From: Antedon mediterranea
Taxonomy: Eukaryota; Animalia; Echinodermata
DNA: 64,000 nt
Assembly (NCBI RefSeq): GCF_964355755.1
Contig: NC_092672.1
Span: 12,400,001-12,464,000 of the forward strand
Direction: 5' to 3'
Below the pieces are notes generated by a model. It saw nothing but the letters and a program-made list of their open reading frames with translations. It did not search any database and was not told the origin of the DNA. The first letter of the stretch is position 1, and every line of letters starts with the position of its first letter. Shown piece after piece: positions 1,406 to 58,679 of this stretch. A program made the translations under genes and the position numbers.

Positions 1406-1562
1406 CTTTGTCCAAGCATGGCCTTTACACAGCTAGTTTTGCCGGCACCTTCTTTCCCGAGAAACATACATCTTGAATTTACAACTGCAATCTCACCATT
1501 TTCAAGTTCATTTTGAAATGATTTAATGGCTCTCTCTCCTCTAGCTAATATTTCTATTGGAA
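1406..1562 (-). CDS. Exon: start of Roc GTPase domain with P-loop
   Basis: 157 nt between tttag and gtaata. Encodes [51 protein letters not shown]: a GxxxxGKT/S motif preceded by the PxEILARG helix typical of invertebrate ROCO proteins. Confidence 0.85.
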
Positions 1563-4500
1563 CTAAATTGCAATTAAAATAAATGTAAAATATACAAAAA
1601 CAACTGTACTAATACAAATATTTTACACTTAAGAATCAATTCAACGTCATAGTTTTAAAAATGTCATTATGACAGCTCATCTTCGTCACATTGATACAGT
1701 TCAAATGTTCAGTACAATGTTCAATGTGTGTCATTAGTAATACACAGTTTAATATTCATGATGCAAAACTCAATCAAGTGTATTAATACAAACTTACTGT
1801 CAAATAACTTCAGTATCTTATTTTTATTCTCTTTGGAGATAAAATTATTACTCTTCAAAACAGATGCTGGTGTTTGTCCTTGCTATACAAAAAAAAATGT
1901 ATTAAAGTATTATCCACTGCTACTTTACTAATCTATATATAAATTTACGTAAGGGCAAAATTCGGTAAATCGCGCCTTACTTCTAGAATTTTCACTCGAT
2001 GGTATGTAAAGTTGGTTCGTACTTTCGGTACTTATTTTAACCGCCTGATGTAACCCTGTTTACTAATTAAATTGAGTTAGATAATTAGTTATTGACGATT
2101 AAAACGAATTTAGGTTCAAAGATTTGCCCCAAATAGGGGTGTTTTCCGATCGTGGTATACACTGTCTAATGGATGTCCATCTTGAAAAATACCCGCCAAA
2201 AAAATGCGAGGAGGCTTCGCATTTTTCTATCTCCTCCTACGATAATTGTTTTTAATAGCTGAAAACCGGTTGAACAGCTAGAGTACACCATCATAATGTT
2301 GAAGACAGGCCGATTTTCTTTAAAAAATACTATTTTGATAGATTTAATATACGATTATACAAATGTATTGATTTGCGATGAATGGAACATCCCAATCTCT
2401 CAGTCTGCCAGAGTTGGTTTAACACAAGTACTGTAGGTAAATTTATGAGCCCTTGGTTTAACACATACGGTAGGTAAATATATGGGCCCTTTGAGAATAA
2501 ACTTGCAATACTTTGACAATACTGTAAATACCTATTAACTATTTTTCATTTGAATCGAACATTTCTTACTGTGAATGTTCGTACTGTTAGATGTAATATA
2601 AAAATATATACAAATAAACTTTATTACTTAGACTGTGGATAGGCTCTACTGTTAGATATACAAATAAACTTTATACTGACAGTTCCTTCTCAACGTTTGT
2701 ATTAATTAATAATTACCAAAAATATAAACGTCGTAGTGGTGTATCGTGACATGTACTTTAATATTTCAATCGATTATGACAGTGACAATTTTAACAAAGT
2801 ATTAAATCGCAAATGTTTTAGGCCTACTGTATTTAGAGGTATATTATTTATAGGCCTATAAAACATGAACAAAATATTTCGTTACTCAGTGGATAAAGAA
2901 TATATTTAAAAATTGTTCCTCTTTGTACCTATCCGCTTTCCCATCCCTCAACCCTAATGTTACATAGCGAGGAGGCTTCGCATTTTCCTATCTCCTCCTA
3001 CGATAATTGTTTTTAATAGCTGAAAACCGGTTGAACAGCTAGAGTACACCATCATAATGTTGAAGACAGGCCGATTTTCTTTAAAAAAATACTATTTTGA
3101 TAGATTGCTAGAGTACACCATCATAATGTTGAAGACAGGCCGATTTTCTTTAAAAAATACTATTTTGATAGATTTAATATACGATTATACAAATGTATTG
3201 ATTTGCGATGAATGGAACATCCAGTAGTTTGGTTTAACACAAGTACTGTAGGTAAATTTATGAGCCCTTGGTTTAACACATACGGTAGGTAAATATATGG
3301 GCCCTTTGAGAATAAACTTGCAATAGGTTCGGAAAATGTTAAAAACCAATTTCTATTATTTGAATCGGTAAACAGTTTCCATTTATTATACATTGATAAT
3401 GAAACATGAAATATTCCTATTTATGTCCCTCGAGGTTCATTACTTTTTATATTTAGTAGTCCCACGGACTTCATCTTAGCCACTCCCCCGAGTGCTAAGG
3501 CCAAATTTATGATACCCTACTTTCTATGTAGTTACAGTTAGTTCTTGACGATAATAATAATACAACGAATTTAGGTTACACCCTTCGGCCGCGAAAACGT
3601 TTCTGTACAAATATGATACCGATTGGCTTTATTTCATTCAACAGCGACCATAATCTCGGCAATTACAGGATAGATAAACTATTTTATTATTGATGTGCTT
3701 ATAAATTAAGACTCATGTAAACAGCTTGATTACATCATTTTACAGACAAACGAAACTTTTTTAAACCTACTGTTTCAATAACTGAGTATAATACTGTATA
3801 CGTTTTCATAAGTAAGTGCATATACATTTTCGTGTTTTCATTGACGAGATTGTAATAGTAACTTCAGTAACTATTACAGTACTTATTTATTATACGACAC
3901 AAGACAATTGTATCTGACAGGTACGTACATTATTCTAAAAAATAAGTCTAGATAGATCCCTTAGGCGTCATAAATCACAGGCCAACAAATCAGTACTCAT
4001 GACAGAAATTCGACCCAGTTTGGTTCACACAAATGTTTACAGGAAGTTCAACACCACAACCGATGATTTGCCCTAAATATTTAGGTAGACTACAGTTTAA
4101 TTTTTCACTGAATAGGAGCTTGAATTTCCGATTTCCATTTCGCAGAATGTCTAGGTCTATTTATTTAGTTTGGTTCTTATAATATATAAATACAATCAAC
4201 TTTATTACTGCGGTTCCATCACCACCACCACGTGCTGCCGCCCAATTCCCGTACATACATTTCCATTTCTCCCTAATTTCTTTAATCCACATAAATTAAT
4301 TGTCCTTTATGGAATCCAGTATTGGTTTTGTTGTCTCTATTTCTGAATACCCCAATTAGGGGGACACTTCCGTTTTTGTTTAGTGTCCCAAAAAAGTCCC
4401 CGTCCGTGGATTCTACTGTATTCGAGAACCATCTGTGAGCACCCCTAGATGGTACGCGAGCGAAGCGAGCGTGCCATCTAGTACTAGTAATTTACATTAT

Positions 4501-7500
4501 GATTGTAATAAACACATTCCTAGGCTAACAGTGTGCACACACGCAAACATGACACAATCTGAGTACCTTTGCACTAACCAACTACAACACTACTCACCAT
4601 TTAATATTTAATGTGATTGAATACACTTTAAAAATGCAATTGAAAAATATTATAAAAGAATAGTCGATACTGATTAAATGTACATGTAATTATCGCATCT
4701 ATGAGAATTTACCACCAGGCTAACATAATGGCTTTAAATAATATTGGCGCCCTTTCTGATATTCTTTGACTCCATCAAGATGATGATTACTGTGTATAAG
4801 TTAACAAAATATTTGTAATATTTGAAGTTAATAACATACTCCTAATCACAATATGAGTATACCTTGGATATACGCGTAATGGTTTGCTTAAGAAGCACAA
4901 TTTAAAAATGCAAATGCAATTTTGAATTAATTGACGGTACCTTGTTTCTTGCTTTAAGTGATGCTCCAAGAGCTATGAGACTGTTCACTATTTCTAAATT
5001 ACCACCAAACAAAACGTGTTCATGTAACGTTGTGTTTCCCTCCAGGAAAGCAGAAAGGTTTTATGTATTATAATATACATTTTACACTTTAGATACTAGA
5101 ACTAAGGTTTAAACACATTTAATATTGTATTCATGCTCCTACCATTATAACAGGCAATTAACTACTGCTGCATATAGTTATTGTATAGGCCTAATTTGCT
5201 TCGCGTGGGCTACTCGTCTTTCAGTAGGTAACTTCGATTATCATCAATGCTAAATCGTCAGGCTTGCGCCCGGGAATGGGTCCGACGGATGCACACCCGG
5301 GAATGTGTCAGGTGGGTGTAGGCGATTATGCACAAGTCCAATTATTTAAACTGGAGAAATGCGTCTGGCAGGTGGACAGCAGGGAGCGAGTCCAACGGAT
5401 GTAATTCCGTGATTGCAAGCATATATGTCTATCGATTATAGAATGAAAGTTATATGATAAATCTGAATAGGGGTAAAAAATTGACTTCAGTAATGTAAAC
5501 GGGGTCCCATCGTTTTATTATAAGCCATGGGCACGCATAATGATTTAAACATCATACACATAAGAGCCATTACTCGTTCGGCATCAAAGTCCGCATGGTC
5601 TATGGTCAAGAAATTGTCACAATTTACTTGACCAAGTAAATGGAGTATGTTGTTAATTGTCTACGACATTAGACCACAATATAACAGTACTGTAAATAAT
5701 ACAACTAATTGATTTTAATTGGGACGTGGAGCAATGAACATACTTTTGAAAGTATTGGTATTAGCGTCTTGTTAAATGACACAGCTAATGATGTTTAAAA
5801 TACTTATATTTACTTTGATAAATAAACTTTTTACACAATGAAAATAAATTAAACAAACACAAGGTTTGTTTATACGGGAGCTCATTTAGATTAACTTTTA
5901 TTGCTAACTGACACAAAATAATAACATTAATCATTTTTTAAACCATTGTAAAAGAGCAATTTACACTGTTTGTTGCTGTGATTGAAGCTCCATGAGCTAT
6001 GAGACTGTTCACTATCTCTCCATTACCGTCCCCAGACTTAACGTGTATATGTAGCGGTGTGTTTCCTCTCTGGAAAGAAGAAAGTTATATTAAACTTGAC
6101 GCATTTTTTTACAGATATTCTTATATTACATATTTATCCTTGCCTCAAGATTAAACTTGAGGCATTATTATACATATTTATCCTTTTCTATATTCATTTT
6201 GTAGTTCATTTAGAGTGATTGTAAATTATATAAAACGAGCTGGTATTAAGAAAATATAAAGAACTTGCTGATTTTAATTATTATAATACAGAGAGTTAGC
6301 ACTGAACACATTTTAAAGTATTACTTTAGCGTCTTGTTTGATCTAAATTGCTACAGCTACACGATTTTTAAGATATTTTACATTGTTTGTTGCTGTGATT
6401 GATGCTCCGTGAGCTATGAGACTGTTCACTATCTCTACATTACCACAGACAAACTCAACGTGTTCATGTAGCGGTGTGTTTCCCTTCTGGAAAGAAGAAA
6501 GTTAGATTAAACTTGACGCATTTTTTTTCAAGAATACAGATATTATTATATTACATATTTTTCTTTTCTATATTTCAGTTTGTAGTTCAATGAGAGTGAC
6601 TGTAATTTATATAGAAAGACCTGGTATTAAGAAAAGAATACAACTTGCTGATTTTAATTATTATAATACAGAGGGGTTAGCACTGAACACATTTTAAAAG
6701 TATTAATGTATCGTTTTGTTCAATCTAAAACGCTACAGCTACACGATTTTTAATGTATTTTAAATTGTAATTTTGCTTTGATAATAACTATACATTTATC
6801 CAATGAAAACACATTAAACGAATCTGGGGTTTGTTTATAACGGGAGATAATGTAAATTAAGTTGTAGTGTTAACTAATACGAATAATTACGTTATTGATT
6901 TTTAAATCATGGTAAAAGAGTAATTTACATTGTTTGTTGATGTGATTGATGCTCCGTGAGCTATCAGACTGTATTATTATATTATTACATATTTATCCTT
7001 TTCTATATTTCATTTTTTAGTTCATTGAGAGTGAATGTAAATTATATAGAAAAATCTGGTATTAAGAAAATAATAAAACTTGCTGATTTTAATTATTATA
7101 ATACAGAAGGGTTAGCAATGAACACATTTTAAAAGTATTGATTTAGCGTCTTGTTCTATCTAAAACACTACAGCTACACGATTTTAGTATATTTAAAATT
7201 GTATTTTTGCTTTGATAATAACTATACATTGATTCCAATGAAACACACAATACACGAATCTAGAGTTTGCTTATAACAGGACACAATTTAAAATGACTTG
7301 TAATGTTAAGTAATACGAATAATTACGTTAATGATTTTCAAATCATTTTAAAAGAGTAATTTACATTGTTTGTTGCTTTGATGGATGCTCCGTGAGCTAT
7401 GATACTGTTCACTATCTCTACATTACCATGGCCAACCCTAACGTGTTCATGTAGCGGTGTGTTTCCATTCTGGAAAGAAGAAAGTTAGAATAAACTTGAG

Positions 7501-10500
7501 CCATTTTTTTCAAGAATACAGGTAGTATTATATTACTTTTTTTTCTATATTTCATTTTGTAATTCATTGAGAGTGACTGTAAATTATATAGAAAGACCTG
7601 GTATTAAGAAAATAATACAACTTGCTGATTAAAATTATTATAATACAGACGGGCTAGCAATGAACACATTTTAAAAGTATTAATTTAGCGTCTTGTTCAA
7701 TTTAAAATGTTACAGCTATTCTATTTTTAATATATTTTAAATTTTATTTTTGGTTTGATAATAACTATACATTTTTTCCAATGAAAAACACATTAAACGA
7801 ATCTAGGGTTTGTTTATAACGGTAGATAATGTAAATTTACTTGTGGTGTTAACTAATGCGAATAATTACGTTAATGATTTTTAAATCAATTTAAAAGAGT
7901 AATTTACATTGTCTGTTGCTGTGATTGATGCTCCGTGAGCAATGAGACTGTTCAATATCTCTACATTACCACAGCCTCGCAAAACGTGTTTATGTAGCGG
8001 TATGTTTCCATCCTGGAAAGAAGAAAGTTAGAATAAACTTGAGCCATTTTTTTCAAGAATACAGGTAGTATTATATTACTTTTTTTTTCTATATTTCATT
8101 TTGTAATTCATTGAGAGTGACTGTAAATTATATAGAAAGACCTGGTATTAAGAAAATAATACAACTTGCTGATCTTAATTATTATAATACAGAGGGTTAG
8201 CAATGAACACATTATAAAAGTATTAATTTAACGTCTTGTTCGATCTCTAAAACGCTACAGCTACACGATTTTTAATATATTTTAAATTGTATTTTTGCTT
8301 AGATAATAACTATACATTTTTACAATGAAAAACACAATAAACGAATCTAGGGTTTGCTTATAACGGGAGAGATAATGTAAATTAACTTGTAGTGTTAACT
8401 AATACAAATAATTACGTTATTGCTTTTTAAATCATTGTATAAGAGTAATTTATATGGCAAGCCTCAGCTGTCTGAAGTATTCAAAATATTATATTATTAT
8501 ATCATTTTTTATTATATTATATATTGTATTGTAATGAATTTTACGTTTTGCGTTATATTACTTGGTTTTAGCATTATATTATATCTATTTCTAATATATT
8601 ATGTGAAAAATGTAACAAATTATTGACTTTTTGTATTATATTATTCGGTTTTGGCATTATATTATGAACATTTACTATTATATTATTAATAAAATACCTT
8701 ATATTATAATATAATTGTATTATATTAAACGCATTTACTTTACTTTATAACATACAACATTATTTATTATTATTTTATATGATATTTATTATACGTCACG
8801 GCTTATTTCAGTTCTTCTAACTCTTTCTCTCCCTCCCCCTGTTCACTAGCAATCAGCGGCAGAATCTGAATTGTGTGACTGTCGAAGGATAACTATTATC
8901 TTTACTAAGTACTAGGCCTAGCCTAGGGCCTAGGCCTACCAGGGGATCTAGCCTAGACGTAGCTAGTTAGACAAGTGACCAAGGACCACCGGACAGCTAC
9001 AACTAATACTACAATACAATAATACTACTACAAACAATAACTACTACTGCTACTACCTAGGCCTAGCTAGTAGAGTAGGTAGCTACGGATCCGGTAGCTA
9101 CTACTAGGCTCGTAGAGCGTATGTATGATATATTAACTACTAGTACTAGGCCTAGGCTAGGCCTACTAGTACTAGGCTAGGCCTAGACTTAAGTTGTAGT
9201 AGTCTAGAGCCGGGCCTGCTGCCTTAGGCTAGGCTACTACTACTACTACTAGGCAGCCAGCCCATGATGGGTACGAGTAAGCCAAAATTTTGGATATAAA
9301 TAAACCAAAATTTGGGTACGAGCGAGTTGGCATTGGTACGGGTTGACCTGTATCATTCTAGCTAATCGTACTAGGCCTAGGCCTCAAGTAAGTCTACGCT
9401 ACCCAGTCCGGCTACAATATGGTCTATTTTGTTTTATAGCTTTATTCATAGCTGGGTTCAAATCTGGGTTGGGACGGCTTTTTCTCATTCTAAAACTCAT
9501 TTCCTTCTCATAATAAAATAATATATGAATTTATTTGTAATATTGTAATGTATACATAATATAAGTAGGCCCTAATTGACATTGCATTTATTATTATTAA
9601 TTATATATTATACGGTTACCCCTTAATTATACTATAGTATAATTTCCTTGTTATATTTTACAATATTTTCTTCATAATTCTACAATTTTGTCTTTCACAG
9701 CACAAATTTATCATACTGAATCATCACACACCAAGTCTCATAAATCTCTACTGTATTTGTCCAAGCTACTCCAGCTACATGGTATTGCCTTGAGGCTAAA
9801 CTACACGGTATACTGGCACTACCATCATTCCTGGCTCGTCAACCTGGACCACATAAGCGCAGTTTCAGTTTCAGTTTATTTACCATTTCAATTTATGAAC
9901 ATAAGAGATGAACAACTTATATGGATGGATAACCGTAAGAGCGAAGCTCGTTTACCGGTCACCCGTTAGTGCAGTGGCTTTACAGACAACATAAAGACAG
10001 GACAAAGGTGCAATACATAACAAGACATGTGAACACTTGTGTTTGCAACCTCTTGGATAAAATTAGAAAGTTAGATATTATATTTCTTTTTGATCATACA
10101 ATGATAATTTTTAAATTACTTCTTAAGAAGTAATACTACTGATTCAAAATACTGTAGTGACTTACACCCTTTGGTCAAGGCTTTATTTGCTCTTATGCTT
10201 ATTTCCTCCAACATACAGAGTACATAGGACTTTTTTTATTCATAACTGTTGAATTGTTTCCCAATACATAGTACCTATTGGTATTATATCTAAAAATACA
10301 AAGGCGGCTAACACAGATAGTTCCATATATACAGTACACTTTTTTAAATAGATGTATCTCTCCAAACTACTCCCAACTACCTAATCTAATTATTACAGTC
10401 ATTAAAGTACATTATTACAGAGATTTTTTTTTTGTGCAGAATTCAAAGTTATGTGTATAGAAAGCAGTACTCGTATTAAAAACTAAGCAGGTTCCAGATC

Positions 10501-13500
10501 TTGAACGCAAACTGGCAGGATATTTTTTATTCTTGAAATGAATTGAATCCTAACTTAATTTTCTACGAACTGGAGACGAAGACATATTATGACCCTTTTA
10601 TTTAAATTCATTTGAATAGACCTCCATGTAAAGTCATTAAAGGCTACATGATTGTTTTATATTTTAATATGTGATAGTAGAAAATCATTGTGTATAATGA
10701 GGACTATGAATCTGATATTTACTTGCATTCTCATCTTTTTAAATTATTATTTATAATGCTGGTAATGAGTTTAAAATTTAATTATATTGACTATTTTTGA
10801 TAATCATCATGTCCTTATAAATGTATTTATATTTCTTTTGTGTAATATAGTTCATATATTATGTATTAATTAAATTGGTAAGGCCCTATATTGTTATTAT
10901 TTAAGGAAAGTTTATATACACTATTATTTAAATGCCTACCAATATTAGTATTAATTGTTTATGTAAATATTTTGTCTAATTGTCTTGATTTTTTGTATAG
11001 GCCAATGGCATCAATGTTTTTCTCAACGCAAATTAGCCTAATAATGCCATATTTAGACACATGATTCATTGATTTCTGATATTCTGTACTTGTGTATGCA
11101 TTACTAAAATAGTAGTTAATATATTTTATAATGTATGTATAAACATATATTCATATTTCTTTAAACATTTTTAAATTTAAAAATTATTATAATACCTATC
11201 TACCTTTCTGATATTGTTACTATTATATAATATTTTTTGAGGCAGCAATAAAAAAAATTAAAACAGTTAATTTGACTTATACTGTACTATGTTAGTTCAG
11301 GAGATGAAGTGTGTGTGGGCAGAAACTAGTGTGTTGGAAGTTGGTGGTGTGAGGTGTATAGTTGTCACTTTAAGACCTAAATTAGATGTTTTCTGAAGAA
11401 AAGAAGTAAGCGGATACGCTTTCAAACAACTCCAAGAAGATTCACACAAAAAAAATTACTTTCCAATAAAATAGTATAACAGTGTATATTACAGTACATT
11501 GAATAAACTCGAGCGGAATAATAACGCACATAAAAAAAACATTCATTTTCTTGTCGAAAAGTGCCCTCTCTGGTTTTCTATTAATTTATTAATAATTATT
11601 ATTAATTGATGAGTAATATGAACATATTTTTAACATTCAATGCTGGAAGCTGGTTCTACTCCTAACAAAGTTTCATACCTCCAAATTTCATCAACGTATT
11701 CAAAGCACTTCAATATTAAATATCACATTTAACATAAAAAATTCGGGTTTTGGATAGAATTTTCCTTAAAAACATATACAAAAAACATCGATAAAAAATA
11801 CTTTTCGTGTTCAAAAACATTTGATACTTGGTATAAATGTTCACTATAGGTTGCTCTATTCACAGAAACAAAATTGCATTCATGAACGTTTTTTTGTTGG
11901 TTGTGTTTTCAAAATAGTTGTTAGCTTGAAAAAAATGAGTTGGAATTGTATGGTCTTTCATAAGTGTACATTTTGTAAAAACGTAAATTTAAAAAATCAG
12001 TGATATGGCTTGATAGTTATTTTTTTTTTGCAATATGGATGCAACCTATATTGAACATTTATACCAAGTATCAAATGTTTTTGAATACGAAAAGTATTTT
12101 TTATCGATGTTTTTTGTATATGTTTTTAAGCAAAATTATATCCAAAACCTGAATTTGTAATGTTAAATGTAATTTATTTAAGTGCTTTGAATACGTTGAT
12201 GACATTTGGAGATATGAAACTTTGTTAGCAGTAGATACAGTTTCCAGCATTAAATTTTAAAAATATGTTTATATTACTCATTAATTGATAATACTTATTA
12301 ATAAATTAATAGAAAACTAGAGAGGGCACTTTTCGACAAGAAAATGAATGTTTTTTATGTGCGTTATTATTCCGCTCGAGTTTATTCAATGTACTGTAAT
12401 ATACACTGTTATACTATTTTATTGGAAAGTAATTATTTTTGTGTGAATCTTCTTGGAGTTGTTTGAAAGCGTATCCGCTTACTTCTTTTCTTCAGAAAAC
12501 ATCTAATTTAGGTCTTAAAGTGACAACTATACACCTCACACCACCAACCTCCAACACACTAGTTTCTGCCAACACACACTTCATCTCCTGAACTAACATA
12601 GTACAGTATAAGTCAAATAAATTTTTTTTTTTTATTGCTGCCTCAAAAAATATTATATAATAGTAACAATATCAGAAAGGTAGATAGGTATTGTAATAAT
12701 TTTTAAAATTTAAAAATGTTTAAAAAAATATGAATATATGTTTATACATACATTATAAATGAAATATATTAACTACTATTTTAGTAATGCATACACAAGT
12801 ACAGAATATCAGAAATCAATGAATCATGTGTCTAAATGTGGCATTATTAGGCTAATTTGCTTTGAGAAAAACATTGATGCCATTGGCCTATACAAAAATC
12901 AAGGCAATTAGACAAAATATTTACATAAACAATTAATACTAATATTGGTAGGCATAAAATAATAGTGTATATAAACTTTCCTTAAATAATAACAGTATAG
13001 GGCCTTACCAATTTATTTAATACATAAAATATGAACTATATTACACAAAAAAAGTATAAATGAATTTATAAGGACATGATGATTATCAAAAATAGTCAAT
13101 ATAATTAAATTTTAAACTCATTACCGGCATTATAAATAATATTTTAAAAAGATAAGAATGCAAGTAAATATCAGATTCATAGTCCTCATTATACACAATG
13201 ATTTCCTACTATCACATATTAAAATATAAAACAATCATGTAGCCTTTAATGACTTTACATGGAGGTCTATTCAAATAAATTTAAATAAAAGGGTCATAAT
13301 ATGTCTTCGTCTCCATTTCGTGGAAATTGAAGTTAGGATTCCATCATTTCAACAACAAAAAATATTCAAAATATTCTGCCAGTTTGCAATCAAGACCTGC
13401 AACCTGCTTAGTTTTTAATACGAGTACTGCTTTCTATACACATAACTTTGATTTCTGCCAAAAAAAAAACAACTCTGTAATAATGTACTTTAATTACTGT

Positions 13501-16500
13501 AATAATCTAGGTATAGATTATGTTGACCGGGCCAGTGAGAGGGCGATCGACTGTACTACCATAAGTCCTGTAGGTGTATACAACTTATTTCTTGTCTACA
13601 AAGTGTATAGTAGTATGCTAATAGTACTATTATTAGATTAGGTAGTTGGGAGTAGTTTGGAGAGATACATCTATCTATAAAAGAGTACTGTATATATGGA
13701 ACTATCTGTGTTAGCCGCCTTTGTATTTTTTGATATAATACCAATAGGTACTATGTATTGGGAAACAATTCAACAGTTATGAATAAAAAAAGTCCTATGT
13801 ACTCTGTATGTTGGAGGAAATAAGCATAATAGCAAATAAAGCCTTGACCACAGGGTGTAAGTCACTACTTTGAATCAGTAGTATGACTTCTTAAGAAGTA
13901 ATTTAAAAATTATCATTGTATGATCAAAAAGAAATATTATAATATCTAACTTTCTCCTTTATATAAATATATTATTTTATCCAAGGGGTTGCAAACACAA
14001 GTGTTCACATGTCTTGTTAAGTATTGCACCTTTGTCCTGTCTTTATGTTTTCTGTAATGTCACTGCACTAACGGGTGACCGGTAAATGAGCTTCGCTCTT
14101 ACGGTTATCCATCCATATAAGTTGTTCATCTCTTATGTTCAGAAATTGAAATGGTAAATAAACTGAAACTGAAACTGTGCTTATGTGGTACAGGTTGACG
14201 AGCCAGGAATGATGGTAGTGCCAGTGTACCGTGTAGTTTAGCCTCAAGGCAATACCATGTAGCTGGAGTAGCTTGGACAAATACAGTAGAGATTTATGAG
14301 ACTTGGTGTGTGATGATTCAGTATGATACATTTGTGCTGTGAAAGACAAAATTGTAGAATTCGGAAGAAAATATTGTAAAATATAACAAGGAAATTATAC
14401 TATAGTATAATTAAGGGGTAACCATATAATACATAATTAATAGTAATAAAGGCAATGGCAATTTCTTATATTATGTATACATTACAATATTACAAATAAA
14501 TTCATATATTATTTTATTATGATAAGGAAATCTGTTTTAGAATGAGAAAAAGCCATCCCAACCCAGATTTGAACCCAGCTATCAATAAAGCTATAAAACA
14601 CAATAGACCATATTGTAGCCGGACTGGGTAGCGTAGACTTACTTGAGGCCTAGGCATAGTACGATTAGCTAGAAGGATACAGGTCAACCCGTACCCATGC
14701 CATGCCAACACGCTCGTACCCAAATTTTGGTTTACATATATCCAAAATGTTGGCTTACTCGTACCCATCATGGGCTGCCTAGTAGTAGTAGTAGTAGTAG
14801 TAGTAGTAGCCTAGCCTAAGGCAGCAGGCCCGGCCCTAGCCTACTACAACTTAAGTCTAGGCCTAGCCTAGTACTAGTAGGCCTCTAGGCCTAGCCTAGG
14901 CCCTAGTAGTTAACATCATACATACGCCCTAGAGCCTAGTAGTAGCTACCTACTACTCACTAGCTAGGCCTAGGTAGTAGCAGTAGTAGTTATTGTAGTA
15001 GTATTATTGTATTGTAGTATTAGTTGTAGCTGTCCGGTGATCCTTGGTCACTTGTCTAGATCCCCTAGTAGGCCTAAGCTATAGGCCTAGTACGTAGTTA
15101 TTCTTCAGCAGTCACACAATTCAGATTCTGCCGGCCGCTGATTGCTAGTGAACAGGGGGAGGGAGAGAAAGAGTTAGAAGAACTGAAATAAGCCGTGACG
15201 TATAATAAACATCATACAAAATAATAATATAACTAACGAATCCGTATAATATAATAATGTTGTATGTTATAAAGTAAAGTAAATGCGTTTAATATAATAC
15301 AATTATATTATAATATAATGTATTTTATTAATAATATAATATTAAATGTTCATAATATAATGCTAAAACCAAATAATATAATACAAAAAGTCAATAATTT
15401 GTTACATTTTTCACATAATATATTAGAAATAGATATAATATAATGCTAAAACCAAGTAATATAATGCAAAACGTATAATTTATTACAATACAATATATAA
15501 TATAATAAAAAAATGATATAATAATATAATATTTTGAATACTTCAGACAGCTGAGGCTTGCCATAAATTTACATTGTTTGTTGCTGTAATTGATGCTCCG
15601 TGAGCTATGAGACTGTTCACTATCTCTACATTACCACTGCCAACCATAACGTGTCTATGTAGCGGTGTGTTTCCATCCTGGAAAGAAGGAAGGTAGATTA
15701 AACTTGAGACATTTTTTTTAAGAATACAAGTATTATTATAATTATTACTTTTTTTTCTATATTTCATTTTGTAGTTCATTGAGAGAGACTGTAAATTATA
15801 TAGAAAGACCTGGTATTAAGAAAATAATACAACTTGCTGATCTTAATTATTATAATACAGAGGGTTAGCAATGAACACATTATAAAAATATTAATTGAAC
15901 GTCTTTTTCGATCTCTAAAACGCTACAGCTACACGATTTTTAATATATGTGACCCGATCTGGCAAAACCCTACTTTTGTCGGAAATATTCATTTTGTATT
16001 TTTTTATATATTTGGATTATTTGAATCATAAGCTTTGTAGTGGTGTTTATTTCATAAAAATTGAGTAAATATTTAAAAAGTTATTACATTTTAAAAACTT
16101 ACAAATCATTCAATTAGTTTACGAGAAAATCGCGTTTGAAGTTTGCAATGAAATTCTTTTTGATACGCGCTGAAAACTCAATTCGTAGCAACGCGGTATT
16201 TTGGTCTAAGGCACAATGACGTCATACCAGGAAGTGTGTGCGATATAATAGCAGCGTGCACATCATAGTCAATTTGACTGATTTCAGACGCCGTTTTAAC
16301 CTATTTAGTCACTCGAATTAACTATTTTGCACTATTGAAAAGCAGCATTATAACGTCAAGCTTATTTTAACTGGTTTCGGAGGTGTTTACGATATCAACA
16401 GCGAAAAACCAAGCAGGCCTAGGCCTAGCTAGGCCTTTTCAGATTTTCGCCGTCATCGCCTGTACTGTATTAAGACCTACTGATGGGTGTTTATCAGGTC

Positions 16501-19500
16501 GTGTATGGCAGCGGTGCATCGACATTGGGGCTGGAGTTAGTAGTAAACTAGCCTAGACAAGCTTGGCGCCTTGCAGAGTCACAGCTTGCTAGCTACTAAC
16601 ATTGTATTGACGATTTAATACATTTTAATTTTTTTTATAACGTGGAAGATTCGCTGTAATGTTTGGACTTGAATCCAATGAGTTTAAAAAACATTTAAGA
16701 TGAAAGGACTGGACAATAAATTAACGCCGTGGCTAAAGATACGGTACCGTATTCTAACTTCTGTTTACTAAAGGTACGGTAAAATTGCATTACGTCATAA
16801 CCAGCCAATGGGGTGCTGGTACGTGTGTGACGTCATCGTATAAGGACTTTGTGGATTTTTTTCATATCGCGAAAACAGTGATCAACCGCATTTTCTTGAT
16901 GCTTTATTTATCGCTATTATCGCCGTCGTGTGTGACAAAAACTAAATGTAGCCTACGTCTGTTATTATTATTGAAAAGCCAAAACATGTTGATTTTAATT
17001 CTAGAATACAGAAAACCGTTTCAAAAGAGGCCTAGGCCTACTTACTACGTACTATAACCTCATTATATGAGTTTAATTGTTTGTGTAGAGGGAAAGCGAT
17101 GTCAGGCTGGGGCCAGCTACATGTGTGCGCTGATTTCTGTGACTCGTCAGCCCTGGGGCTACTGTCTAAATCATAGTATTTGAAGACCCCTTTATTGTCC
17201 GCATTTGCTTGTTGTTTATGGTCACCATTGTAAACAAAGTTTAATAAAAAATATAGGCCTAAATATATAGGCCATTTGGAATAAAAATAAAACCCTCATC
17301 TGCAGCGCACACACATCCACGCAGCCTGGCGCCGCCGATAGGAATTCTACATATATAATATAATAGTAATACAAATACAACAGACGCGATATGAAAAAAA
17401 ATCCCAAGTCCTTATACGATGACGTCACACGTACCAGCACCCCATTGGCTGATTATGACGTAATGCAATGTTACCGTACCTTTAGTAAACAGAAGTTAGA
17501 ATACGGTACCGTATCTTTAGCCACGGCGATAAATTAAATAAATAATTAAAAGCCGATTGGATATATAAAATGTATAAAGAAAACTATTTATTGACAATAA
17601 AGCTAGGCCCAGTAGTAGTAGTAGTAGGCCTACAAAACCATAATAAAATTAAGGCCTAGCCCAAAGAAATATAGAAAATACAATTGAATTTATGACATGA
17701 ATTGTCTATTTCAATATGGTATAAACAAATACAGGCTACAGCTATTACAGAACACGCCGAACCCTTTACTTTGAATATTAAAATCGTTTTTATTCCAATT
17801 TAGGACATGCTGTGTGTAAAATGAAAATAACCTCACAAAAATGTAAACAGCTTTTTATTTCCGCGCGTAGAGCGTATAACATCTAGCGCGTTGACCAATA
17901 ACGTTTGTTATTGCGATGATGCGCCATAGCAACACACGCAGTTCGCTGTTCCAGAAACTTCGAAGAACCGAATTTTCTGAAATTATGTCATAGTAAATCA
18001 AAGTTTTCATTGGTTCCTTCTTTAAACTCCGACCTAATACTTCCATATTTGGAATGTCAAATGGATGAGCTTTATTTTGATGTGTGACCTTTCAACATTG
18101 TGCAGCGAACTGGCGATCAAAATGTCGTCAAACTCGGCAACTTTCAACTGAATTTACGCAAAATTTTAGCGTAGATCGTGAATAAATTGTTAGGCTTGAG
18201 GAAAATACATGTTTTTAAAACTCTCTTTTTTCATAATTTTAATTAAATTTTGGGAGTTTAAATCAGGTAGACGTATTCTTAAATAGTGAAACATTTCGAA
18301 AATGCAAAAACATGAAATCTGCCAGGGTAGTCGATTTGGACTTATTCTGACTGATTACGTGAATTTTGAATTGCCGACAAAGAGAGGGTTTTGCGGGGTG
18401 TCACGAAAGCTCAGACCACGACAGCTCAGACCCCCTAAGACCTAAGATCACGAAAGCTAAGACCCAACACCTAAGATTACAAATACTAAGATATACTACA
18501 GCTTAAAAACAATACTTGTTTATCCATACATAATTTTAAACACAGTAGGTTTCATTTATTACCATAAATATAATTTAATACTACCGCAAAACATAGATAA
18601 ACTCACATTATTTTCGCCCGTTGAGTAAATGTATATTTTTTCTTTACAACAAACAAACTTGACGGGTTGTTTGTTGGTATATATTTACTCCAATGTGTTG
18701 GTTCAGAGGATGTTTTTCTTACGCACCTGCCTTTCTTGTATTTTGACTCCAAATTTGTTGACTAACTTTATCCTGAACACCACACTTTAAAATTAGGACT
18801 TATAAGTACTTTCAGAAGGAGAAACACATAATAACAAATAAATAAATCCTTTAAATTGATGATTTTACAGATGTGTTTCTTTGTATTCTGTAATGACAAT
18901 GTAACTCCTCAAGCTCCCCATGCTCAATGTTTTTGTTTCTATGGAGCGCCAAAAGAGCAACAATAATAGTACAAGTATAAAAACAGAAAGAAAACGAAAC
19001 AAAAAAACTTATCATGATTTTTAAATTAAAATTTATTTGCCAGTATTTATTTCTTCGTACTTGCATGATTATACTATTATCATTACAATTTTAATTTTAC
19101 ATTGTTCCATCCACACTGTAGATGGACTCCACAGAGTTTTCAGCCCTCTATATAATTTTTGCTCTTTTGACGTTCCATAGAAACAAAAACATTGAACATG
19201 GCCCATGGGCCTACTGTACTGTAGGCTAGTCATTTTGTGTGCGAGAAAAACGTCTGTAAAATCATCAATTTAAAAATGTATTTGTTACTTTTTATGAGAT
19301 TCTTTTTCATGAAAGTGCCAATTCTAAGGTGTGGTATTCAGAATAAATGTTAGGAGTTAAAATACAAGGCAGGTGCGAAAGATAAATATTTGTAATCTTA
19401 GGTGTTGGGTCTTAGCTTTCGTGATCTTAGGTCTTAGGGGGTCTGAGCTTTCGTGGTCTGAGCTTTCGTGACACCCGGGTTTTGCGAGATCGGGTCACAT

Positions 19501-22500
19501 ATTTTAAATTGTATTTTTGCTTTGATAATAACTATACATTTTTACAATGAAAAACACAATAAACGAATCTAGGGTTTGCTTATAACGGGAGAGATAATGT
19601 AAATTAACTTGTACGTAAATGCTTTTTAAATCATTGTATAAGAGTACTTTACATTGCTTGTTGCTGTGATTGATGCTCCGTGGGCTATGAGACTGTTCAC
19701 TATCTCTACATTACCACCGCCATACACAACATGTTTATGTAGCGGTGTGTTTCCATGCTGGAAAGAAGTCACACAAGTCACATCACAAATCAGTTTATTT
19801 GATCCAAAAGAAAAAAAAAAATACAAAGCAAAAAATATACAAAAGGACCAGGGAGACGTCCATTAAGGCCAAAAGCCGCATGCATGGAAGCCACCCGAAC
19901 AGTTTAAATAATATCTAATTTTCATGTATATAATATAATTTAAAAATTAACAAATCATAACATTAACAACATCATATCAGAACAGCTACAACCCATCTCT
20001 ATTACAAATATAACAATTTTGGATATAACATACATCATCATATTCTGAAATAAAATTCTTTTTTAAATATGTAGAAAAACCTTTCAAAGAATGTGTATTT
20101 ACCTTTTCAGTAATCAAATTTACAGTATTGTTAATTAATAAAGGTAGGCTATACCTAATACACCTCTTTGCAAACTCATGATTGACCCTCACAACATGAA
20201 AGTTGTCTTTAATACGTGTGTTATACAAATGTAAAGCTGAATTTAGTTCTAAAGAAAACCTTTGAAAATAATCAGGTAACATATTATTTGAATATTTATA
20301 GTAAAATTTTAATTGGCATAGTAGTTTATGAATATCACATACATTTAGAAATCTGAATTTTTTTTAATGAGGTTCTGAATGGGCATTGTATTTACTTTGA
20401 GTAATAATACGTAAAGCTTTTTTCTGCAATATTGTTACTCTTTTACAAACATAACCCCAAAGCAGTATACCATAATTTATGTGTGAAACAACTAAAGAGT
20501 TATATAAAATATTCATAACATTTGCTGGGATAAAGCGCTTGAGTTTATTAAAAATGCCAATAGTTTTGGAAATCTTATTTGAAATATAATCACCATGGCT
20601 ATTCCATTTTTATGGCAAGCCTCAGCTGTCTGAAGTATTCAAAATATTATATTATTATATAATTTTTTATTATATTATATATTGTATTGTAATGAATTTT
20701 ACGTTTTGCGTTATATTACTTGGTTTTAGCATTATATTATATCTATTTCTAATATATTATGTGAAAAATGTAACAAATTATTGACTTTTTGTGTTATATT
20801 ATTCGGTTTTGGCATTATATTATGAACATTTACTATTATATTAATAATAAAATACCTTATATTATAATATAATTGTATTATATTAAACGCATTTACTTTA
20901 CTTTATAACATACAACATTATTATATTATACGCATTCGTTAGTTATATTATTATTTTATATGATGTTTATTATACGTCACGGCTTATTTCAGTTCTTCTA
21001 ACTCTTTCTCTCCCTCCCCCTGTTCACTAGCAATCAGCGGCAGAATCTGAATTGTGTGACTGTCGAAGAATAACTATTATCTTTACTACGTACTAGGCCT
21101 AGCCTAGGGCCTAGACCTACCAGGGGATCTAGCCTAGACGTAGCTAGTTAGACAAGTGACCAAGGACCACCGGACAGCTACAACTAATACTACAATACAA
21201 TAATACTACTACAAACAATAACTACTACTGCTACTACCTAGGCCTAGCTAGTAGAGTAGGTAGCTACGGATCCGGTAGCTACTACTAGGCTCGTAGGGCG
21301 TATGTATGATATTAACTACTAGTACTAGGCCTAGGCTAGGCCTACTAGTACTAGGCTAGGCCTAGACTTAAGTTGTAGTAGGCTAGAGCCGGGCCTGCTG
21401 CCTTAGGCTAGGCTACTACTACTACTAATACTAGGCAGCCAGCCCATGATGGGTACGAGTAAGCCAAAATTTTGGATATAAGTAAACCAAAATTTGGGTA
21501 CGAGCGAGTTGGCATTGGTACGGGTTGACCTGTATCATTCTAGCTAATCGTACTAGGCCTCAAGTAAGTCTACGCTACCCAGTCCGGCTACAATATGGTC
21601 TATTTTGTTTTATAGCTTTATTGATAGCTGGGTTCAAATCTGGGTTAGGACGGCTTTTTCTCATTCTAAAACAGATTTCCTTATCATAATAAAATATTAT
21701 ATGAATTTATTTGTAATATTGTAATGTATACATAATATAAGTAGGCCCTAATTGACATTGCATTTATTATTATTAATTATATATTATACGGTTACCCCTT
21801 AATTATACTATAGTATAATTTCCTTGTTATATTTTACAATATTTTCTTCATAATTCTACAATTTTGTCTTTCACAGCACAAATTTATCATACTGAATCAT
21901 CACACACCAAGTCTCATAAATCTCTACTGTATTTGTCCAAGCTACTCCAGCTACATGGTATTGCCTTGAGGCTAAACTACACGGTATACTGGCACTACCA
22001 TCATTCCTGGCTCGTCAACCTGGACCACATAAGCGCAGTTTCAGTTTCAGTTTATTTACCATTTCAATTTATGAACATAAGAGATGAACAACTTATATGG
22101 ATGGATAACCGTAAGAGCGAAGCTCGTTTACCGGTCACCCGTTAGTGCAGTGGCTTTACAGACAACATAAAGACAGGACAAAGGTGCAATACATAACAAG
22201 ACATGTGAACACTTGTGTTTGCAACCCCTTGGATAAAATTAGAAAGTTAGATATTATAATTTTCTTTTCTTTTTGATCATACAATGATAATTTTTAAATT
22301 ACTTCTTCTTTTTTTTCTCTTTTGTGGCGCAAACACCACTTTTATTCACATTCATATTATCTCATATTACATAAGATCGTATTATTTAACTTGTAAATGT
22401 CGTTACAGTTCATAAGTAACATTTTTACATATATGAATTCTGTATTACTCCTTTTTTCATTAATTTTCTTATATTTTGTTATACACTTGACAGGATCATC

Positions 22501-25500
22501 ATTATCATCTATCCCGTTTTAAAATAGTTCACACATTTTCATTTGTTTGTTTTCATTTTACAACCCGGATTATACAATATATTTATATACATGATAAAAA
22601 AAAACAATAATTGCTCAGTACCACCAGTAACCCGTATCACTGTAATTCCTTTTCGGTTAATCGTATCAAATTAGAAATTATATTATCATAATCTTATTTC
22701 TTAAAGCTACCCATTTTTCTATACTTGTTTCTTTATTGTTATATGTTTCACATTCAATGTTATATAACATATTGCTTTTAAATGAATTCCATAAAGATTT
22801 ACCCACTGGCTTATTTAGTGCAGATATCATTTTTATTCTATAAATAGTAAATGCTGCAAAAGTGTAAATATAATCTATTAGCTTATCTCCCGTTCCTAGT
22901 ATTAATTGTTTAAATGATATATTATTGTGATTTAAACTTACAAAGATACTAAGCATTTTCCTCCAATATTTCTGAATAAATCTACAACTAAAAAACAAAT
23001 GATTTTCATTTTCAATTTCTCCACATTTGTCACACGTTTGTGTTTCCTTAACTTTCCACTGATACAGCCGTTTGCTGGTAGGCAGTATTCTATGTAACAT
23101 CTTATAATTGAATTGTGCTAGTTTCTTATCTTTCATTTTACATACTTTCCGTAACCAAGAAGTTTTCCAATCAATGTTGTTATCATTGAAGTACTCTTCC
23201 CATTTTAGTTGTGACATTGGAATAATGAAATATTCTTTCACAAACCATGAGTATATTAGTTTGGTAGTATTAATCTCATACTTAGTCCCAACTACTTCAT
23301 CATTATCATCACAATTGAAAATATCTACCTCCTTAATAATACGTTTCCATTGAATTGGTATTGCCTTAATAATGCACAAATACTCATTTAACCAGTTTGT
23401 TTTACATTGTAGTTTCACCAGTATTTCGTTTGATGTTAAAAAAGTGTTCTTATTAACAATGTCTTTAATACTGATAATGCCACTGTCAATCCAATGCTTG
23501 TAGAAAAGCGTTTTTTTTTAGAGATTCTGTTATAATTTATGTAGACTTTTATCATATTTTTGTAAAACAGTGGAATTTTATCAGAATTAACATCAATAAT
23601 GTTATAACATGACATATTAAGTAAAACATTAACATCACATATTTTTTTAATATAATACATTGGAATATTTTTCCATTTAGCACCATCATCATTCATAATT
23701 CTTTTTAACCAGCCACACATGAGTGCGTTAACATGAAGAGTAAAATCAGGCATTTTAATGCCTCCCATCTCAACATCACCAATTAGAGTTTTTCTTTTTA
23801 TCTTTTCCCTTTTATTGTTCCAAATAAAATTATATATTAGATTTGTAACTTGTGTATATACATATTTTGGAACATCAGTGATATTTGCAGCATATGTTAA
23901 TTTAGATAGTGCAAGACTTTTCAGGATTATTATTCTACCAAAAATTGAGAGATTTCTAGCATTCCATTGTTTTAAAGTCTTTTCTAGCTCTATTAATTTA
24001 ACATCCCAGTTTTTTCTGGTACATTCTTCTGTATTACACCCTACATATATGCCTAAAATTTTGATCGGGTGTTTTACCCAATTTAATTCTAAAGGTCTAT
24101 CTATTCTGTTCTTCCATTTACCAATCCAAAAAGCATTGGTTTTTTTTTATTTAGTGTCATTCCAGATACTTCACAAAAACGTTCAATTACACTGACTGCT
24201 GACTTAATACTTTTGTCATTACCAACATACAAAACAGTATCATCGGCTAATTGGCTTATTCTAGCTTCTATGTTATTTTCATTATTTGGAAGTTTAATAC
24301 CCTTATAGTCATCTTTGTTTCTTATTCTAGATGCCATTACTTCAACCACTAAAATGAATAAATGAACAGATAGAGGACAACCTTGTCTAATACCTCTTTC
24401 CATTTTAAAATTGTTTGAAACCCAACCATTGTTAACTGTGACACATTCAACGTTATTGTATAATACTTTTACCCAGTTACAAAAGAACATTCCAAAGTTA
24501 AACTTTTCTAGAACATTGAACATAAAATCTCTACTAATAGAGTCAAAAGCCTTCTTAAAATCTACGGTAATTATTGCCCCTTCGATATCATTACACTTAC
24601 ACTTAAATTACTTCTTAAGAAGTAATACTACTGATTCAAAATACTGTAGTGACTTACACCCTTTGGTCAAGGCTTTATTTGCTCTTATGCTTATTTCCTC
24701 CAACATACAGAGTACATAGGACTTTTTTTATTCATAACTGTTGAATTGTTTCCCAATACATAGTACCTATTGGTATTATATCTAAAAATACAAAGGCGGC
24801 TAACACAGATAGTTCCATATATACAGTACTCTTTTATAAATAGATGTATCTCTCCAAACTACTCCCAACTACCTAATCTAATTATTACAGTCATTAAAGT
24901 ACATTATTACAGAGATTTTTTTTTTTTTTGCAGAATTCAAAGTTATGTGTATAGAAAGCAGTACTCGTATTAAAAACTAAGCAGGTTCCAGGTCTTGAAC
25001 GCAAACTGGCAGGATATTTTTTATTGTTGAAATGAATTGAATCCTAACTTAATTTTCTACGAACTGGAGACGAAGACATATTATGACCCTTTTATTTAGA
25101 TTCATTTGAATAGACCTCCATGTAAAGTCATTAAAGGCTACATGATTGTTTTATATTTTAATATGTGATAGTAGAAAATCATTGTGTATTATTTATAATG
25201 CTGGTAATGAGTTTAAATTTAATTATATTGACTATTTTTGATAATCATCATGTCCTTATAAATTCATTTATATTTCTTTTGTGTAATATAGTTCATATAT
25301 TATGTATTAATTAAATTGGTAAGGCCCTATACTGTTATTATTTAAGGAAAGTTTATATACACTATTATGTAAATGCCTACCAATATTAGTATTATTTGTT
25401 TATGTAAATATTTTGTCTAATTGTCTTGATTTTTTGTATAGGCCAATGGCATCAATGTTTTTCTCAACGCAAATTAGCCTAATAATGCCATATTTAGACA

Positions 25501-49828: not shown

Positions 49829-49919
49829 TTAAAAAATGCAGTCCCCCTCAGTTTGAAGATATAACTTATTCATCCATTGAAAGAAGTGCACTCTGTAGTT
49901 GCCAATCATTCTGTGGTTG
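49821..49919 (-). CDS. Exon with putative start codon (ATG at 49828-49826) and 5' leader
   Basis: ttttccag acceptor and ATG GCA AA|gtaagc donor. Phase 2 fits the next exon, giving MAKNVLL. Confidence 0.65.
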
Positions 49920-51441
49920 CTGGAAAATGAAACATAAACTTTAAGCATAATGTATTTTTAATATTTTATTTTCTGTTCATTTTTCAATATTTCAATATTT
50001 TGCAATACTAGAAGTTCTTTTTCTAATATTTCATATTAAATTGAAAAATGAAGAGTAAACAAAAATAAAATACATTTGTATATTTTAGGCCTAATTGTCT
50101 TAGAAGAATTTACAAGAATTGATATTTATTCGAGCAGACCAACCATAAACGGCTTTGTTCTAGTATATCATTTACTGTCAATATTAGTATTTTTGTCAAA
50201 GCATTGTACCAATCATTTTATAAAAACATGTTAGGATTTATATACATTTTTCAAGTTTGTATTTTAACATAAATTATATAATTCCCGGTGGGAGCTAATA
50301 GATAAACTGCCGATATCAGATTTAAGAAGTTTCTTCCCAAAGGTAAGAAACATATCATCTCTTCTCGCCTTAAGTGAAGTAAGACACTGCCTTGGTCCTA
50401 CCAGAACCAAAATAAAAAAACTATAAACCCAATTAGATTGTAATTAATTACAAATGACCTTACAGATCATTACATATACACTGCTTTGGTTCTTCCGACA
50501 ACCACACTCCAACAGATAGACATCCCCTACAACTTGCTGATAGAATGATCTAGCACATTGTAAATAAGGAATATAAAATGAGCTATTACAGACTACCTAC
50601 TTTGCATAGTACTGCCTTAGTTCTATCATCCCCATCTGAATATAGGGTACAATATCTCATCTGAGCTATCTTTTGGTACCAGAATATAAATACCAATATT
50701 CCCGCAAGAAATAAAAACAAATTTAATTGAATAAAGTTGATGTATATCAGTACATTCATCTATTTGCAAATTAGAGTCATTAAAATGATCATAAACAAAA
50801 ATAGATTAAAACCATTAAAAAGGAAAACTTGTTTAATGGTTTCTTTTAAAATGTATAAGCTAATAATAAAATCTCAGTTTCCAACGTATGATGAGGTTGG
50901 AATTCCAACCTGACCAAACTCAATTTTACAGAAAATAACTTTAAAATAATAGTTTTGTTTAGGTACAGTATATATATATATATTTATATTAAACCGATGG
51001 TAACCATAAAATCGGTATATGAGAGAAATATGGGTTATTCTGTAAATTTACACGATTAGATGGTTACCTAAAAACAGTATATTTTAACATTTAAAGTTTA
51101 CTGTCCTAGTCATTGCTCAGAACTTGTATCATCTTTACTGTTTTTTGTCACAGATACATCTTCAAAAAGGTTGTCTGAATGCCTAAACCAGTCAGACATA
51201 TAAGCGAATTAGAAAGCTGTATTTTACAGTATTGAAATAACTAGTATTTACTAGTACTTTACTTTTTTTATTTTCAAATAGTAAACAGTATACAGAATAA
51301 TTATATAGTAGAAACTCACACACGTCACTGCATTAAGTAAATGTAGTGTACTATACATTATGTATTCATGTGTGAGATCCTAACATTGGTAGCCGGTGGC
51401 ATATGCAATACTGTATCGAAGGTAGGCTCCATGGGTCTGGG

Positions 51442-51783: not shown

Positions 51784-52396
51784 GGGGGTTTGTAATCGAA
51801 ATTTAGCGGGGTCTTTGGTATTCCAATGTTCTAGATCATAATGGTTTCTGATGCTATCTACAATAGAATAGCTTAGTTGGGAGAAAGGGGGTCTCTATAG
51901 TCAAATTATAGAGCGTCTGGTACTTGCGGTGCCGTGGACAATTAGTCTCTTGTTACCCATTTAGTACTGTATGAACTCAACTTGTTTATTTTACATTAAT
52001 TGTGAGTGGTATCTTACTCATCATATATACTTCCCATTCTTTACGTCCTCCTTAGGGGATCTGGCTTATTGCAAGAGATAAAATATCTGTCGTTCGTGAA
52101 TTTGGTAGGAGAATGTCATAGTATATAGTGATGAAATTACAGTAGCTGGTATCTCTCTTATCTCATTGGTACCAATTCGGGGTTCCCCACGTCTATACGC
52201 AGCAGGGGGATACCCAGCAGGGGGATACCCGACAGGACATAGGGAAATATGTAATAAAAAAAAAAATACATATACAAACAAAAAAGTTAATTGTCTACAA
52301 TTTATTTGACAAATTTGCGCATAGCAAGATACGATACCTACCCAACCATGTAGCATAGCATTAGCAATAAGATAAATTTAGCGATTCAATATTTAA

Positions 52397-58400: not shown

Positions 58401-58679
58401 ACGAGTAAACTTTCGTCGGATTTTCTTCAGCAGGTGCTCATATGGGTCGATGTGTAGTGCCACCGACTTTGGTATCAGAGGTACCGGGATCGAGTCCCGT
58501 CACGGGAAAACAATTTAATAAAAGGATTTATTTGGTTGTTACACTGAAAAGGCAGTTTTAATTTCGAATAGGCTAATTTTTTGAAAAGCCATAACTGAAA
58601 AGTACTTGAATGCGCACAAGATACGTTTTGTTGCGGGCGGATAACCAAACTCGTCCTCAAGTGACGAGTTCAGATCTAG
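55446..58679 (+). mobile_element. Two nested Helentron/DINE-1-like family B copies
   Basis: Two heads ttggttatccgcctcaagcggataa (55446, ~55496); bodies end ggcggataaccaa + hairpin + CTAG at 57113 and 58679; internal ~310-bp tandem repeat. Confidence 0.75.

Follow-up and report, generated by a model that had tools for sequence, protein, structure and literature searches.

The window analyzed here is a 64,000-nucleotide stretch of the genome of the crinoid Antedon mediterranea (contig NC_092672.1, positions 12,400,001 to 12,464,000). It contains the 5' part of a minus-strand gene in which seven exons, each encoding a single ankyrin repeat, precede the first exon of a Roc GTPase domain. This array is a previously unannotated version of a known receptor-diversifying design. 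An excess of amino-acid change at the variable codons of the repeats is well supported, and sequence comparison indicates that these codons, which belong to the predicted binding face, are likely under diversifying selection. The explanation held with moderate confidence is that this is a crinoid-type ankyrin-Roc (Roco) gene whose repeat exons arose by tandem duplication and whose binding-face codons have been diversified as an intracellular sensor of foreign ligands. The gene product is likely a fast-diversifying intracellular sensor and possibly an immune one.

The gene is composed of an N-terminal capping exon, the seven phase-0 ankyrin exons, a linker exon, and the first Roc exon (Table 1). 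It spans position 49828 to below position 1406, with the remainder of the Roc-COR region beyond base 1 of the window. The joined coding sequence is 1073 nucleotides (357 codons) in length, contains no stop, and has consistent phases at all junctions. The predicted start sits right after an in-frame stop, at the 3' end of the upstream exon. An original prediction, made from the sequence alone, described seven one-repeat exons of phase 0-0 feeding a Roc GTPase. Both parts hold, as all seven exons were located on the minus strand with GT donors, and the frame stays open through to a Roc exon that is 92% identical to its relatives. The locus given in that prediction (4941 to 19757) contains the seven exons but falls short of the gene at both ends.

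The acceptors of exons 1 through 6 read ttccag, and all seven repeat exons have GT donors. The repeats are 35 residues per exon, or 34 for exon 7. The two residues beyond the 33-residue ankyrin consensus are placed by alignment as an insertion after helix 1. At exon 7 the usual acceptor is TG instead of AG, and the next AG lies 3 nucleotides downstream and keeps the frame. Use of this shifted AG drops the first residue, so the gene probably does not encode the E before GN. Apart from this E and from the GNTP motif, which reads GNIP in exon 3 and GNTT in exon 7, the original prediction lists residues and codons that match the sequence.

The assignment as ankyrin repeats (TPLH motif and helix-turn-helix fold) is supported by the Pfam Ank match of exon 5 and by a structural model of the relative P0001 (XP_071944626.1). 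The Roc assignment follows from the P-loop (G1 motif) GKEGAGKTS and from the identity of the Roc exon to proteins with a Pfam Roc match above the cut-off, such as P0002. The Roc exon searched alone against Pfam gave no match.

Table 1. Positions in the window of the ankyrin-Roc gene features and of the elements in its introns.
Feature	Position	Strand	Basis
Predicted start, ATG plus 5 nt (M-A-K, phase 2)	49821..49828	-	Sequence; phase fits next exon; inferred
N-terminal capping ankyrin exon, phase 2-0	49570..49663	-	77% identity to P0001 residues 5-35 (tblastn); AG/GT sites
Ankyrin exon 1, 105 nt, phase 0-0	19653..19757	-	Sequence
Ankyrin exon 2, 105 nt, phase 0-0	15573..15677	-	Sequence
Ankyrin exon 3, 105 nt, GNIPLH	7908..8012	-	Sequence
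Ankyrin exon 4, 105 nt	7365..7469	-	Sequence
Dead eighth unit: remnant 3' half of an ankyrin exon, with the acceptor and the 5' half lost	about 6922..6972	-	Sequence
Ankyrin exon 5, 105 nt	6382..6486	-	Pfam Ank E 2e-6
Ankyrin exon 6, 105 nt	5965..6069	-	Sequence
Ankyrin exon 7, terminal-type repeat	4941..5042 (5039-4941, 99 nt, via in-frame AG)	-	88% identity to P0001 last repeat
C-cap/linker exon, 85 nt, phase 0-1	1798..1882	-	79% identity to P0002 residues 51-78
First Roc exon, 157 nt, phase 1-2, P-loop GKEGAGKTS	1406..1562	-	92% identity to P0001/P0002
Tandem exon-plus-intron units, about 420-550 bp	5694..8455	-	Inter-exon introns differ 4.6-14%
Large inverted-repeat (foldback) DNA transposon in exon 2-3 intron	8450..15565	.	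Self-BLAST, end sequences
Element with terminal inverted repeats in exon 1-2 intron	15949..19499	.	Sequence
LINE-like (long interspersed nuclear element) element upstream of exon 1	19769..40085	-	Exo_endo_phos E 5e-5, below cut-off

The variable codons were compared with the framework codons and with the introns using exons 1 through 6. Exon 7 was excluded from these six-copy tests, as the introns beside it do not align to those of the other exons. At the six variable codons, pairwise comparison finds differences at bases 1 and 2 in 104 of 180 cases (0.58; the pairs are not independent) and at base 3 in 24 of 90 (0.27). The flanking introns differ at 385 of 2923 (0.13, upstream) and 241 of 1518 (0.16, downstream). 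Framework codons differ in 40 of 870 comparisons at bases 1 and 2 (0.046) and in 35 of 435 at base 3 (0.08). Variable columns are rarer in the framework (8 of 58) than in the introns (107 of 301; p=0.001). Without any choice of columns, three or more bases are present in 8 of 105 exon columns vs 7 of 301 intron columns (p=0.03). Five or more triplets among the six copies occur in 4 of 35 codons vs 0 of 263 three-base windows of the aligned introns. Third bases were predicted to be kept while bases 1 and 2 change. This is fully so only at repeat positions 10 and 13, and position 3 has three third-base states.

Codon site models (own implementation, naive posteriors) also indicate the diversifying selection that had been predicted. 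Twice the log-likelihood difference is 30.8 and 35.2 for M1a/M2a, 30.6 and 34.8 for M7/M8, and 30.6 and 34.9 for M8a/M8, on maximum-likelihood and star trees, respectively. The ratio of nonsynonymous to synonymous rates (omega) is 15 to 17 at about 12% of sites. These are codons 1, 11, 12, and 14, which correspond to ankyrin positions 3, 13, and 14 and to the second inserted loop residue. In six further settings that varied the tree, the codon frequencies, and multi-nucleotide mutation, M1a/M2a was significant in all six (19.7 to 35.2, omega 9 to 21). Codon 8 (position 10) is borderline, since it joins the selected class with a posterior of 0.66 to 1.0 in the four six-copy settings and stays out of it in the seven-copy ones. 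Multi-nucleotide mutation was rejected as a cause; M1a/M2a stays significant with it modeled. Exons older than their introns were also rejected, as the framework third bases differ at 0.08 vs 0.13 to 0.16 for the introns.

Relaxed constraint on the surface combined with local mutation hot spots could produce variable codons without positive selection, and is considered very improbable. A class of raised mutation with omega of 1 was rejected in favor of a free omega in five of the six settings (p 0.004 to 0.007). The hot-spot model lies within 1 to 4 log-likelihood units of M2a. Minimum changes at bases 1 and 2 vs base 3 number 19 vs 4, which is not significant alone (p=0.076). When neutral evolution was simulated at intron divergence, 0 of 4000 runs with uniform rates and 1 of 4000 with per-base gamma rates reached the observed count.

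Several results weigh against selection. The hot-spot model survives in the sixth setting, with intron-derived codon frequencies (p=0.12). Extreme per-codon rate variation reaches the observed count in 1-3% of simulations at intron divergence and in 8-44% at higher divergence, and the simulations taken together reach it in 0.05-12% at 1.4 times and 6-44% at 2.4 times that divergence. A looser simulation statistic (four or more residues) is weaker, and the whole of exon 2 does not differ significantly from its flanking introns (p=0.14). The site models had only seven short sequences to work with, and omega itself is imprecise. The high-divergence and hot-spot simulations are less likely to apply because the introns vary little in rate (gamma shape at least 1.1) and the framework third bases differ less than the introns. 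Hot spots are absent from the 263 intron windows. The adjacent codons 10, 15, and 16 do not vary at any base, third bases included. Most variable codons are not CpG sites, and the fast sites coincide with positions used in binder libraries. Diversifying selection is the preferred explanation of the variable codons.

The repeats of P0001 were placed on a predicted structure. Residues 1-295, modeled from an alignment of 40 general ankyrin proteins with the crinoid rows left out, give an ankyrin fold with a predicted local distance difference test (pLDDT) score of 89 and a predicted template modeling (pTM) score of 0.85, which matches ankyrin and DARPin (designed ankyrin repeat protein) structures. 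A fold from the single P0001 sequence was a low-confidence beta model (pLDDT 43) and was discarded. In repeat 1 of the model, helix 1 is composed of residues 40-47. The variable residues fall in the turn preceding GxTPLH, within helix 1 (i, i+3, i+4), and in the loop that follows this helix. They would thus lie on the beta-turn, helix 1, and its end loop; the original prediction had named the beta-turn and helix 1 as the binding face. A caution is that their exposure is taken from ankyrin anatomy and secondary structure. Position 11 is an invariant histidine in these exons, where ankyrin repeats usually have alanine and other crinoid paralogs have tyrosine. Cysteine or histidine is present in the variable loop of three exons.

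The randomized positions of classical DARPins are 2, 3, 5, 13, 14, and 33. The ANK-N5C library uses positions 2, 3, 5, 10, 13, and 33, in the beta-turn and helix 1 of the concave binding surface (PMC4308713), with the numbering of that paper assumed to equal the repeat numbering used here. Residue variety in the array is enriched at the library positions, which were set beforehand (ANK-N5C p=0.0056, DARPin set p=0.0025, permutation over columns), even with position 5 invariant. The overlap claimed in the original prediction is thus partial: positions 3, 13, and 14 vary, but 5 does not, and 2 and 33 change only slightly. The fourth selected site lies in the 2-residue insertion that DARPins lack. 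As in DARPins and ANK-N5C, the framework is constant and variation is found at the beta-turn and helix 1 (3, 10, 13, and 14). Unlike them, the array has histidine in place of alanine at position 11, and its variation extends into a lengthened loop between helix 1 and helix 2 (repeats of 34 to 36 residues).

The pattern recurs in a paralog. P0001 shares the cap and the linker of the window's gene and carries six repeats of its type, and the per-position variety of the P0001 repeats correlates with that of the window (Spearman 0.74; partly independent only, given shared ancestry). Framework identity between window and P0001 repeats reaches 29 of 29, while the variable sites of exons 1 through 6 match at 0 to 3 of 6. 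The repeats of P0024 vary at positions 13-14 and in the loop. Those of P0030 are near-invariant, which counts against the preferred reading.

The repeat units have also recombined. The intron that separates exons 2 and 3 is a recombinant mosaic, with a first half like the preceding intron (8 differences in 221) and a second half like the following one (4 in 195). None of 3000 permutations reached the observed value, which is the best of 60 triplets. The mosaic points to unequal crossover or conversion between units. Repeat number differs as well, with seven in the window vs six (internal plus terminal) in P0001, in addition to one dead unit. The seven exons would have arisen by tandem duplication of exon-plus-intron units. 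Their phase-0 symmetry would allow repeats to be gained, lost, or swapped without a frameshift, so that point change and unit shuffling together could remodel one continuous binding groove.

The same symmetry bears on whether the exons are true cassettes that are skipped or combined by alternative splicing, as in Dscam or the brown-algal ROCO genes. Any skip would keep the frame because every internal exon is of phase 0-0, and the repeat exons of algal ROCO genes are reported to be spliced in this way (PMC11378527). Against this, P0001, the one close database protein with a full array, is one model with its six repeats in series in a single-member cluster (no isoforms), and P0005/P0031 is the only pair among the relatives compared that differs by one repeat between isoforms. 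Splicing cassettes are judged unlikely. A larger proposal is held to be similarly doubtful: that crinoids run a natural DARPin library, in which expanded intracellular ankyrin-Roc-COR-DED receptors have exons that are selected, recombined, and perhaps spliced combinatorially. An animal would thereby have a repertoire-building immune sensor, with the GTPase acting as a death switch in place of an NLR ATPase.

There is also a small chance that this copy is one of the decaying members of a birth-and-death family, with a selection signal that dates from the past. The usual acceptor of exon 7 is lost, exon 1 has been cut off from its original branch point by the LINE, and one unit is dead; none of these was mentioned in the original prediction. 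TPLH is altered in two exons, and nested transposons make up about 31 kb of the introns between 8450 and 40085. Decay is countered by the absence of stops and frameshifts over 357 codons, the GT at all donors, the in-frame rescue AG of exon 7, the intact P-loop, and the conserved Roc exon. Both decay of this copy and cassette splicing can coexist with a diversified ankyrin-Roc sensor.

The closest relatives are crinoid ANK-Roc-COR-(DED-like) proteins. In the Roc-exon search 27 of 32 candidates matched, all from Antedon mediterranea or Anneissia japonica. A word-limited Roc-COR search gave 27 matches, all crinoid, and leaves room for other taxa. The family as collected is an expanded set of paralogs with 30 Antedon and 35 Anneissia records (fragments and isoforms included), and the G1 motif is present in 23 and 27 of them, respectively. 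A search with the ankyrin region placed P0001 first, followed by generic ankyrins of at most 42% identity among the 120 listed. A representative search returned mostly ankyrin proteins; the 10 matches looked up were 9 crinoid proteins and 1 abalone ankyrin-repeat protein. An abalone protein, P0179 (XP_048241358.1, Haliotis rufescens), contains about 27 near-identical ankyrin repeats of 33 residues, with most of their variation around positions 12-14; a Roc motif was looked for in it and none was found.

Full-length members carry ANK-Roc-COR followed by DED-like, Death, HEPN_DZIP3, or ZU5 domains. No kinase, NACHT, or NB-ARC match was found among the 30 relatives scanned. The nucleotide-binding domain is Roc, and the gene does not belong with the NLR (STAND) proteins. 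The Roc exon of the window groups with the four Antedon proteins P0001, P0002, P0029, and P0314, a subgroup with LHxHV repeats, at a support of 97/91 over 51 columns only. P0002 and P0029 contain WDYAG, THMD, and COR-A (E about 1e-15), and P0314 contains WDYAG; the G3/G4 motifs and COR stretch of the gene itself lie beyond base 1. The preferred reading has points against it here. COR and DED are outside the window, the DED matches in relatives are below the Pfam cut-off (E about 1e-4 to 1e-7), and a DED profile searched against PDB gave FADD and vFLIP at E 0.04-0.9 only, below chance hits.

All four of these relatives sit on a contig of equal length, and three have consecutive accessions, which suggests that they form a gene cluster. 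The terminal repeat is 34 residues in the window and P0001, and 36 in P0002, P0029, and P0314. The intron upstream of exon 7 (5357-5401, minus strand) matches the N-terminus of P0029, so the P0029 model probably starts inside an intron. In the P0002 model, the first segment is an ankyrin exon translated in a different frame. The RefSeq models for this cluster look fragmented.

By analogy with other Roco and NLR proteins, ligand binding by the repeats would shift the nucleotide and dimer state of Roc-COR; models of this cycle differ (PMC6320773). The C-terminal DED-like domains could then be exposed or clustered and recruit a FADD/caspase-8-type death or inflammatory pathway. The proposed cause of the codon diversification is that the protein likely senses fast-changing foreign ligands. 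Selection could be real with a target other than a pathogen: the array could serve to tell self from non-self, to control symbionts, or in a conflict with selfish elements. The sequence tests speak only to diversification, and allorecognition genes are among the fungal analogues that have conserved repeats (PMC4986451, PMC2873952). On the other side, family expansion with death-fold and HEPN C-termini fits counter-invader systems (PMC8195603), and no signal peptide or membrane segment was seen by eye in the predicted N-terminus, which makes recognition at the cell surface unlikely. A non-pathogen target is considered rather improbable, and sensing of foreign ligands in a putative immune role is the most likely reading.

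The nearest known design is that of the brown-algal LRR-ROCO genes (Zambounis et al. 2012, PMC3341825; Teng et al. 2024, PMC11378527). Like the array, these genes place a series of one-repeat exons before Roc-COR, shuffle exons, are under positive selection at the binding face, form a clustered birth-and-death family, and have an inferred function. The array has one repeat per symmetric exon, binding-face positive selection, and recombination among units, and departs in that its repeats are ankyrin and not LRR. It comes from an animal, its relatives add DED-like, Death, or HEPN C-termini, and alternative splicing is reported for the algae. The analogy to the algal genes drawn in the original prediction is supported, as is its ankyrin-exon array leading into a Roc GTPase in an animal, here of crinoid type.

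Some fungal NLRs, such as Podospora Pa_3_8560, have highly conserved ANK repeats with the same selection pattern (Dyrka et al. 2014, PMC4986451). Internally conserved repeats make up 0.8% of metazoan ANK/TPR/WD repeats according to the same source. The fungal proteins have a NACHT/NB-ARC ATPase switch, a C-terminal sensor, and an N-terminal effector, whereas the crinoid gene has a Roc GTPase switch, an N-terminal sensor, one exon per repeat, and a 2-residue loop insertion. The HNWD WD40 genes are a further fungal analogue (PMC2873952). DAPK1 has the same ANK-Roc-COR-death-fold order as the crinoid family, and MASL1 is a kinase-less Roco protein like the crinoid relatives scanned (PMC6320773). 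DAPK1 is not described in the available text of that source as an expanded family with hypervariable repeats. Bacterial repeat-AP-GTPase-COR-effector proteins are described as conflict systems (PMC8195603), and Roc-COR proteins with TIR or Death domains are reported from anemones and Aplysia (PMC5094078, PMC9334734). A literature search that covered few subscription papers found no account of the crinoid family or of animal ankyrin-exon Roco arrays, and crinoid genome supplements may list the expansion.

If correct, the preferred reading would place in a deuterostome animal the combination of conserved framework, selected binding residues, and repeat shuffling that is described from brown algae and fungi. 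It would also add a third combination of parts: an ankyrin sensor, a Roc-COR switch, and a death-fold output. The unannotated, expanded crinoid family would be a concrete immune candidate with four or five residues per repeat as targets for mutation, and a simple kinase-less system for studying repeat-domain control of a Roco GTPase. The overlap of natural positions with engineered binder libraries, together with the variable inter-helix loop, is of interest for binder design.

The introns of the gene contain several mobile elements. The foldback transposon at 8450-15565 is inserted a few bases past the exon 2 donor, and no coding capacity was noticed in it. The LINE lies 11 nucleotides upstream of the exon 1 acceptor. 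Its insertion displaced the original branch point of exon 1 to about 40090, within the original upstream intron at about 40086-40333. The LINE is itself interrupted by a second foldback transposon (about 20609-36459), which in turn hosts other nested elements. Both foldback copies belong to the same family, with multi-kilobase inverted arms and apparent 6-bp target duplications. The second copy includes a Gypsy-like LTR (long terminal repeat) retrotransposon (30928-36235) with LTRs that are 93% identical and interrupted gag/pol-like frames. Another LTR-type element (42692-49038) has matching ends of 118 bp (97%), is internally deleted, and contains one frame that matches SCAN, zinc knuckle, and RNase H families.

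Rfam and ARAGORN scans of the window gave nothing. The minus strand carries several exon-like segments (49821-51215 and 40990-41130) whose ends resemble splice sites but whose obvious frames contain stops. They are possibly 5' untranslated region exons or the remains of another gene. Three exon-like pieces at 50254-50759 had no Pfam match and no match from crinoid relatives. The linker and Roc exons (1406-1882) are enclosed by an element at 66-2966 with inverted arms of about 1 kb, and a related arm is found at 45398-46418. Upstream of the gene, 52394-64000 is a complex tandem and inverted array of 1.3-1.6 kb units with 306-bp subunits.

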